Of a stretch of 7,747 bases of DNA, positions 5,971 through 6,228 are shown piece by piece (position 1 is the stretch's first letter; each line of letters begins with the position of its first letter). The position numbers and the translations under genes were made by a program. A model generated the notes under the pieces. The model had not been told where the DNA came from, searched no databases, and saw nothing but the letters and a program-made list of their open reading frames with translations. The stretch comes from a virus (taxonomy: Duplodnaviria > Heunggongvirae > Uroviricota > Caudoviricetes): the IMG/VR virus record IMGVR_UViG_2537561714_000016, positions 1-7,747 of that record, one strand, 5' to 3'.

Positions 5971-6228
5971 CTACTTCGCTTTTGCTTCCGCTCGCTTACG
6001 CCGGCGCTCTTCTTTCCTCTCGGCTTTTGCCATGTCCATGAATGCCTGCATGATCGAGTTCCGCATCATGTAGCTAACAAAGTGATGATTGACACAGCCG
6101 TTGAGGCGCAGCTGCTCGCCAAACTCATCCACCGAGGCCAATGCTTCCATCATACCCTTCTCGCCTTTCATGAACTCTGAGAAGTCGCGCCCCGCTCTGG
6201 AGGCGCATTCAATGACACGATCACTCAT
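5971..6228 (-). CDS. Hypothetical small protein with strongly basic C-terminal tail, translationally coupled to the KilA-N gene
   Basis: 85 aa; ATG overlaps the KilA-N stop (ATGA at 6225-6228). Ends in AKAERKEERRRKRAEAKAK. No family recognised. Confidence 0.55.
   Translation of the reverse strand: MSDRVIECASRAGRDFSEFMKGEKGMMEALASVDEFGEQLRLNGCVNHHFVSYMMRNSIMQAFMDMAKAERKEERRRKRAEAKAK

Follow-up and report, generated by a model that had tools for sequence, protein, structure and literature searches.

A conserved partner gene of KilA-N genes in late operons of temperate enterobacterial phages

What does a small protein contribute when its gene begins on the stop codon of a phage KilA-N gene? The question is raised by an open reading frame of 85 codons (5971-6228, minus strand) in the 7,747-nt stretch of phage DNA analysed here, referred to as the window. 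The first-pass annotation had described this ORF as coupled to the KilA-N gene, with a basic tail and without a recognisable family. The ORF exists exactly as claimed there, and its translation is identical to that in the ORF list. The finding is real and was correctly described; the gene has long been catalogued, there is nothing startling about it, and it makes a modest lead.

New here are two observations: the linkage to KilA-N holds regardless of the KilA-N subtype, and part of the protein is a module common to T5orf172 proteins. Taken together, these place the uncharacterised phrog_875 family, to which the 85-aa protein belongs, in the Bro/KilA-N domain network. Proteins of the KilA-N/Bro network rank among the commonest uncharacterised accessory proteins of temperate phages, and the carriers of the present cassette include Shiga-toxin phages of O157:H7. 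A defined small partner of very different KilA-N genes would offer a simple experimental handle on KilA-N function and would add a domain to the Bro network. If the partner acts alone or with marginal effect, it is one more annotated small phage protein.

Gene order and expression context

Positions 5600-6900 of the window are 99.8% identical to the Stx2c phages 2851 and 1717, and by its sequence the window is the late region of an Stx2c-type lambdoid (Shiga-toxin-type) prophage (phage 2851/1717). The minus strand carries all identified genes, the sole exception being a small DUF3950/YlcI-YnfO gene (5065-5250, plus strand). Read along the minus strand, a lysozyme gene (7359-7676) is followed by Rz (6925-7374), which contains Rz1 (6978-7193; Pfam E 4e-20, lipobox LLGVSAC) in a different frame. 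This nesting of Rz1 in Rz is the classic spanin arrangement. Then come the KilA-N gene (6225-6722; hkbK in HK620), which encodes 165 aa with a KilA-N and an ORF11CD3 domain (Pfam E 7e-16 and 2e-12, respectively; phrog_129 / phrog_10441), and the gene of the 85-aa protein (hkbL in HK620, gp65 in phage 2851), supported by the ORF list, its PHROG match and its dN/dS. Beyond an unannotated gap of 720 nt (5251-5970) and the DUF3950 gene lie the minus-strand genes for an HNH endonuclease (4658-5023), TerS (3805-4368), TerL (2147-3808) and a prohead protease-capsid fusion (146-2083).

Two side observations concern this gene order. The fusion is a 645-aa ORF that joins a Peptidase_S78 prohead protease to Phage_capsid directly after TerL, and there is no portal gene between terminase and protease/capsid, an order unusual for an HK97-like head module. 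Inside the 720-nt gap lies a strongly hydrophobic 52-aa ORF with a TTG start (5380-5538, minus strand), which adjoins the most AT-rich patch of the examined region (31-36% GC, ~5400-5700). This ORF had no match in Pfam, PHROG or PADLOC, and the annotation of phage 2851 has no such gene. A small membrane protein or toxin-like moron is conceivable, as is a spurious ORF.

Between Rz and kilA-N, the consensus scan and the sequence itself revealed two tandem terminator-like hairpins with T-runs (6839-6891, minus strand). They come directly after Rz, and late transcription must read through them, antiterminated, in order to reach the packaging genes. The consensus scan showed no sigma-70-like promoter between Rz, or its hairpins, and kilA-N. 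Since hairpins follow Rz and no promoter was seen before kilA-N, the cassette is probably dependent on antiterminated late transcription. As far as consensus scans can tell, its expression probably falls late in the lytic cycle and not in the lysogen.

A strong hairpin with 17-nt arms and an 8-nt loop (5931-5972, minus strand) begins inside the stop codon of the partner gene. It is seen both as an inverted repeat and by RNA folding (-28.2 kcal/mol, z -5.15), and has no U-tract. Assessed as a moron, the cassette shows no sigma-70-like promoter upstream and, downstream, this strong hairpin without a U-tract (consensus scans only). The hairpin may be a mosaic boundary or an RNA-stability element. 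A diverged second copy of the 5883-5968 segment occurs further downstream in HK97 and HK620, and the first 36 nt are also found alone elsewhere in E. coli genomes (H183, H184). An Rfam scan of the window gave no relevant match.

The 85-aa protein: family, conservation and modular architecture

The 85-aa protein is a full-length member of phrog_875 (HMM match with E 3.2e-54, in which residues 1-85 align with positions 1-85 of the 85-position profile). The earlier statement that no family could be recognised holds for Pfam and NCBIfam and fails for PHROG. In Pfam the sole match at E<=1 was YqzE (13.8 bits against a cut-off of 27), located in the low-complexity tail, while NCBIfam gave no match at E<=1. 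The PDB sequences contained no relative at E<=10. Among the PADLOC defence models the best match was QatB (E 0.022, 12.4 bits), again in the charged tail and sub-threshold.

The protein is 100% identical in HK620 (hkbL), phage 2851 (gp65), phage 1717 and others, and the homologues in HK97 (p61) and mEp234 share 96-97% identity with it (p61: 96% over the first 54 residues). At least 1000 contigs carry the exact sequence, under no other names than "hypothetical protein" and "Bacteriophage protein". The gene was thus already known and long catalogued as a hypothetical protein, which the first-pass annotation had missed. The KilA-N/partner pair was found at >=80% coverage in about 400 of 5426 complete E. 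coli genomes (~7%). Even so, the family is narrow: of 1.84 billion representative proteins searched exhaustively with its profile, 21 were matched at E<=0.001. Named close relatives are confined to Enterobacterales hosts (Escherichia, Enterobacter, Salmonella, Citrobacter, Klebsiella, Rouxiella). Our literature search found no functional study of the 85-aa protein, hkbK/hkbL, HK97 gp73 or phage 2851 kilA, and nothing on the function of ORF11CD3.

Two records of the gene deserve a remark of their own. The HK97 copy, p61 (L004, 2001-2234), is frameshifted after residue 54 compared with mEp234 and all other homologues, whereby the end of the third helix and the tail are lost. Either the gene has truly been inactivated in HK97 or the original sequence contains an error. 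A copy with 99% identity lies on a 4-kb contig (JARKOR010000234.1) of a "Candidatus Nanosynbacter" MAG (Saccharibacteria), where its presence is almost certainly due to contamination of the bin by an enterobacterial phage.

Comparison of the gene with homologues of 54-97% identity gave dN/dS values of 0.04-0.29, and in the tail alone the Scandinavium comparison showed 7 synonymous changes against 1 non-synonymous change. Together with the conserved features described below, the dN/dS values identify a real protein-coding gene under purifying selection.

Residues 67-85 (5974-6030, minus strand) form an Arg/Lys-rich C-terminal helix, AKAERKEERRRKRAEAKAK, with 10 K/R and 4 E, a net charge of +6 and a pI of 11. 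A tail rich in Lys, Arg, Glu and Ala had been noted before and is borne out, except that it comprises 19 residues and not 18. Nine opposite-charge i/i+3 and i/i+4 pairs can be counted in this helix. Across 105 full-length cluster representatives, the net charge of the tail ranges from 0 to +9 with a median of +6 (the two lowest values belong to divergent, probably frameshifted C-termini), and the motif KEERRRKR is nearly invariant. Residues 1-66 (6031-6228, minus strand) constitute a helical core which is acidic and Met-rich, as the annotation had said (net charge -3, pI 5.2, 9 Met), and over the same 105 representatives the medians for this part are 9 Met and a net charge of -2. As the composition of tail and core is kept across these homologues, it is not due to chance.

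The emphasis that had been laid on the tail is only partly justified. The basic helical tail is conserved, but the strongest conservation lies elsewhere, in the N-terminal ~55 residues. Invariant in the core of the family alignment are E7, C8, A9, S10, R11, G13, R14, D15, F16, S17, F19, G22, E23, K24, F36, Q39, L40, G44, C45 and N47, and the best-conserved stretches are ECASRAGRDFSEF in helix 1 and GCVNHHFV in the loop leading into helix 3. A zinc site made up of C8, C45, H48 and H49 was considered and rejected, because the ligands are replaced in the relatives P0122, P0132 and P0134 (C8 by A, S or L; C45 by V; H48 by S).

AlphaFold2 predicted three helices, H1 (3-20), H2 (26-42) and H3 (48-84), with a mean pLDDT of 92.8, from a shallow alignment of 21 sequences and with two of the five models at a pLDDT of ~70. 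In the model, H3 is a single helix twice the length of H1 and H2 (17-18 residues), its first half belonging to the core. The basic tail prolongs H3 beyond its neighbours and would therefore project as a free helical extension. Structure matches to the three-helix fold were to generic helical bundles only. The long helices give a bundle that has no likeness to a helix-turn-helix and is closer to protein-binding bundles (MIT domains, for example).

For residues ~3-60 there is homology to the N-terminal part of phrog_4284 proteins, of which P0132 and P0134 serve as representatives here. The 85-aa protein matches phrog_4284 with an E-value of 4e-6, and in the opposite direction P0132 and P0134 match phrog_875 with 2.7e-9 and 4.5e-7, respectively; whole-library E-values of 3.8e-5 and 7.9e-4 add to this support. 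The C-terminal half of both proteins is a T5orf172/MUG113 domain, in place of which the 85-aa protein has its basic helix. Pfam confirmed that the T5orf172 domain is absent from the 85-aa protein, so that the N-terminal module alone is common to both. The architecture is thus modular: an N-terminal module is combined with either a basic helix or a T5orf172 domain. When the N-terminal domains of phrog_4284 were used alone, the homologue search found nothing, and tblastn against the phage records returned phrog_875 genes only.

The two relatives differ in their surroundings. P0132 is encoded directly before a KilA-N+P63C gene, within a moron cluster of the tail region that adjoins an Arc/Ant module (L007). 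The gene for P0134 is found between lysis and terminase genes with no KilA-N gene nearby.

Linkage to KilA-N genes

In the window, the start of the partner gene overlaps the KilA-N stop as the annotation had stated. The minus strand reads CCG GGA TGA at the end of one frame and ATG AGT GAT at the beginning of the other, and the 4-nt overlap ATGA (6225-6228), read directly from the sequence, is a junction of the kind that allows translational coupling. The link to the KilA-N gene held well beyond the window. A KilA-N ORF, of one of two architectures, lies directly upstream of the partner and ends at or within 2 nt of its start in 168 of the 169 loci fetched. By partner subtype, a KilA-N ORF ends at the start codon in 91/92 loci with the E. 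coli type and in 77/77 loci with the Klebsiella type, the two subtypes sharing about 70% identity. Many of the 169 loci are near-identical, so these counts do not represent independent events, and it is the independent contrasts that carry weight.

Such contrasts are provided by the two architectures of the upstream protein. Type A combines KilA-N with ORF11CD3 (165 aa; the window, HK620, Klebsiella RAH1), while type B combines KilA-N with P63C (242 aa; HK97 gp73, mEp234 and most Klebsiella-type loci). The two types share 24% identity, in the KilA-N domain only, to which the hhalign match of 95.6% probability is likewise confined. Yet partners of type A and type B KilA-N genes can be 97% identical, and either partner subtype is found with either KilA-N type (L005, L014).

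The form of the junction follows the KilA-N type. Type A has the ATGA overlap, whereas in type B the stop codon is followed by two nucleotides and ATG; this spacing is kept while the nucleotides vary (TGACC, TAACC, TGAGC, TGATT, TAAAC). The partner has a weak Shine-Dalgarno sequence (-1.5 to -5.0 kcal/mol; kilA-N, -6.4). The tight and conserved spacing in combination with the weak Shine-Dalgarno sequence indicates translational coupling. The fixed stoichiometry with KilA-N that had been read from the overlap does not follow, since a 4-nt overlap implies co-expression and not stoichiometry.

The site of the cassette differs between the subtypes, mostly the lysis/packaging junction for E. coli-type loci and mostly the tail-gene region for Klebsiella-type loci, with the gene order kept in both. 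DNA homology between the window and HK97 or mEp234 (98-99%) is confined to 6213-5934, which corresponds to the partner gene and its hairpin. Because the homology is restricted to this interval, the partner is a mosaic module of its own, combined with different KilA-N genes. Either KilA-N type is also found as an intact gene without a partner, as in Erwinia phiEt88 and Salmonella SPN3UB, and further intact genes are followed by a remnant only (22 codons in pPE4, 16 codons in L171-175). The linkage is therefore one-way: the partner almost never occurs without KilA-N directly upstream, but KilA-N does occur without the partner. From these comparisons the 85-aa gene is shown to be a genuine, conserved, non-essential accessory gene of temperate enterobacterial phages, and the second gene of a mobile two-gene cassette with KilA-N inside late operons.

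The partner could have been a detached C-terminal domain of ordinary Bro/KilA proteins, the outcome named in the annotation as one that would overturn its view. No such Pfam match was obtained at E<=1, and hhalign of the 85-aa family against the type A and type B KilA-N families gave probabilities of 0.2% and 0.1%, with the 95.6% between the two KilA-N families as positive control. At the sensitivity reached, Pfam and hhalign thus speak against a detached Bro-network domain (ORF11CD3, P63C, ANT, P22_AR_C, Phage_ASH and others). Nor was any natural fusion of the 85-aa protein to KilA-N or Bro-N found among the 1.84 billion representatives.

Two further observations concern the KilA-N genes themselves. 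KilA-N+P63C genes in tail-region moron clusters adjoin P22-immI-like Arc/Arc/Ant modules (L007, 4724-8327; SPN3UB (L176), 1801-4326), which hints at a functional connection of this KilA-N type with antirepressor control. Actinobacillus phage vB_Apl-pPE4 (L003), deposited as infecting Actinobacillus pleuropneumoniae, carries a KilA-N gene with 88% nucleotide identity to the present E. coli phage, together with the first 22 codons of the partner only (1958-2565). This reflects either a recent transfer between bacterial families or a misassignment of host or assembly.

Possible roles and comparison with known systems

The explanation that we consider the best, and hold tentatively, is that KilA-N proteins have in the 85-aa protein an accessory subunit, dispensable and translationally coupled, whose module docks while the basic helix contacts nucleic acid. 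The partner would be translated by coupling to the KilA-N ORF. Docking or targeting would fall to its N-terminal module of three helices, acidic and Met-rich, and the ~19-residue Arg/Lys-rich extension of H3 would act as the effector by contacting the nucleic-acid backbone, so that binding by the KilA-N complex is strengthened or altered. Nucleic-acid binding by the tail would be plausible; nothing in the analysis points to the ribosome- or membrane-interacting tail that had also been suggested. As the phrog_4284 module carries a T5orf172 domain instead of the basic helix, the module behaves like an adaptor, and it might bring different DNA-directed effectors to the same kind of target. The output could be late-phase regulation, antirepressor-like cross-talk or interference with competing phage DNA. 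In favour of an accessory subunit are the linkage to both KilA-N architectures in two genomic niches, the tight junction with its weak Shine-Dalgarno sequence, the mosaic unit of gene and hairpin, the module common to T5orf172 proteins (one of them encoded beside a KilA-N+P63C gene), and the projecting basic helix, whose charge is kept in a gene under purifying selection.

Several observations count against an accessory subunit. Both KilA-N types occur without the partner and KilA-N thus works alone. The partner sequence does not co-vary with the KilA-N type, which argues against a specific interface unless this lies on the conserved KilA-N fold. The HK97 copy is frameshifted and has no tail, so any role of the partner is dispensable for plaque growth. 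In addition, the T5orf172 relative P0134 has no KilA-N neighbour, and the fold matches generic bundles only, in a model built on a shallow alignment.

Some of these observations would also fit an autonomous small regulator that binds DNA or RNA, derived from the N-terminus of a T5orf172 protein by replacement of the nuclease domain with a basic helix, for which the position behind KilA-N serves expression only. Homology to the N-terminus of the phrog_4284 T5orf172 proteins and the strongly basic tail agree with such an origin. So do the missing co-variation with the KilA-N type, the location of P0134 and the movement of gene plus hairpin as a mosaic unit of their own. By analogy there is also a precedent in CapR, a domesticated N-terminal domain of a T5orf172 protein that acts as a DNA-binding repressor (PMC8096241). 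An autonomous gene should, however, sometimes be found behind other upstream genes, and KilA-N precedes it in 168/169 loci, which include four very divergent KilA-N proteins and two niches. The long-helix bundle, closer to protein-binding bundles (MIT domains) than to a helix-turn-helix, also speaks against it. We regard an autonomous regulator, the main rival of the accessory subunit, as possible but doubtful.

KilA-N proteins can be toxic, as exemplified by P1 KilA, and the partner might instead be an antidote or negative regulator that binds and restrains the KilA-N protein, antitoxin-like and made only with the toxin. The tight two-gene operon with its coupling would suit this role, and the acidic core could mask a DNA-binding surface. 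The KilA-N protein of the window matches the PADLOC candidate PDC-S22 (E 1e-8), and the KilA-N family includes a characterised abortive-infection protein (PMC8585504). Like type II toxin-antitoxin genes, the two genes are adjacent and co-expressed (168/169 loci, with ATGA or a 2-nt spacer). In such systems, though, the toxin is not kept without its antitoxin, and intact KilA-N genes persist without an intact partner in phiEt88, SPN3UB, pPE4, L171-175 and HK97, which is unexpected for an essential antidote. No known antitoxin fold or family was matched in Pfam, NCBIfam or PADLOC, and it is not obvious what an antidote would do with a conserved, strongly basic tail. This makes an antidote unlikely. 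Far less likely still is a programmed -1 frameshift near the end of kilA-N, which would fuse the 85 residues to KilA-N as a long isoform. The partner does lie in the -1 frame relative to KilA-N at both junction types, and one database protein (P0001) is such a fusion. It stems from a single contig, however, and looks like an indel. Moreover, the partner frame is open for just 10 codons upstream of its ATG, no canonical slippery heptamer was seen by eye in the last kilA-N codons, and all homologues keep the ATG and the N-terminal residues as their start.

A bolder version of the accessory subunit, which we think rather improbable, is that the module is an undescribed adaptor of the Bro/KilA-N network. 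It would dock in trans and deliver interchangeable effectors, a basic clamp helix or a T5orf172 nuclease, used late in infection against competing DNA. If true, the cassette would be a "split" version of known KilA-N-nuclease fusions, and the competing DNA that is marked or attacked would be that of co-resident prophages, satellites or superinfecting phages.

Among described genes, HK620 hkbK/hkbL, HK97 gp73/p61 and phage 2851 gp66/gp65 represent the same gene at the same late-region place behind a KilA-N gene, all annotated as hypothetical protein. There is no structural difference in HK620 and phage 2851, whereas HK97 p61 is frameshifted and has no tail. The likeness of the tail to the arginine-rich motifs of lambda N, P22 N and HK022 Nun and to ER/K single alpha-helices is compositional only. 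The tail is C-terminal, sits on a folded bundle and has a net charge of +6, whereas ER/K single alpha-helices are near-neutral in net charge, and no boxB-like target was identified.

The phrog_4284 proteins have the G-C/V-x-x-H-H-F-V motif in common with the 85-aa protein and are likewise encoded in phage late or moron regions. They differ in that a GIY-YIG-superfamily T5orf172 domain replaces the 19-residue basic helix and that C8, C45 and H48 are not kept. T5orf172 belongs to the GIY-YIG superfamily and often co-occurs with the DNA-binding domains Bro-N/KilA-N (PMC8096241). CapR, encoded by PLE, is a stand-alone N-terminal domain of T5orf172 homing-endonuclease-like proteins and a DNA-binding repressor (PMC8096241). 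The same evolutionary logic, by which a small protein corresponds to the non-nuclease N-terminal part of T5orf172 proteins, may apply by analogy to the 85-aa protein. CapR, however, needs four Cys for DNA binding, whereas distant relatives of the 85-aa family have not kept its Cys and His residues.

KilA-N and ORF11CD3 belong, with related domains, to the domain-swapping "Bro network" (PMC10111431). Bro-network and KilA-N proteins include P1 KilA, BstA and phage antirepressors. BstA, a KilA-N protein that provides abortive-infection defence, consists of one polypeptide of 307 aa whose C-terminal domain is a different one (PMC8585504). The upstream KilA-N + ORF11CD3 gene is a member of the network and the 85-aa protein travels along with it, carrying a module in common with T5orf172 proteins, themselves connected to the network (PMC10111431; PMC8096241). 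In contrast to the members of this network, the 85-aa protein is a separate polypeptide that matches none of the network's described domains and is unrelated to its own neighbours.
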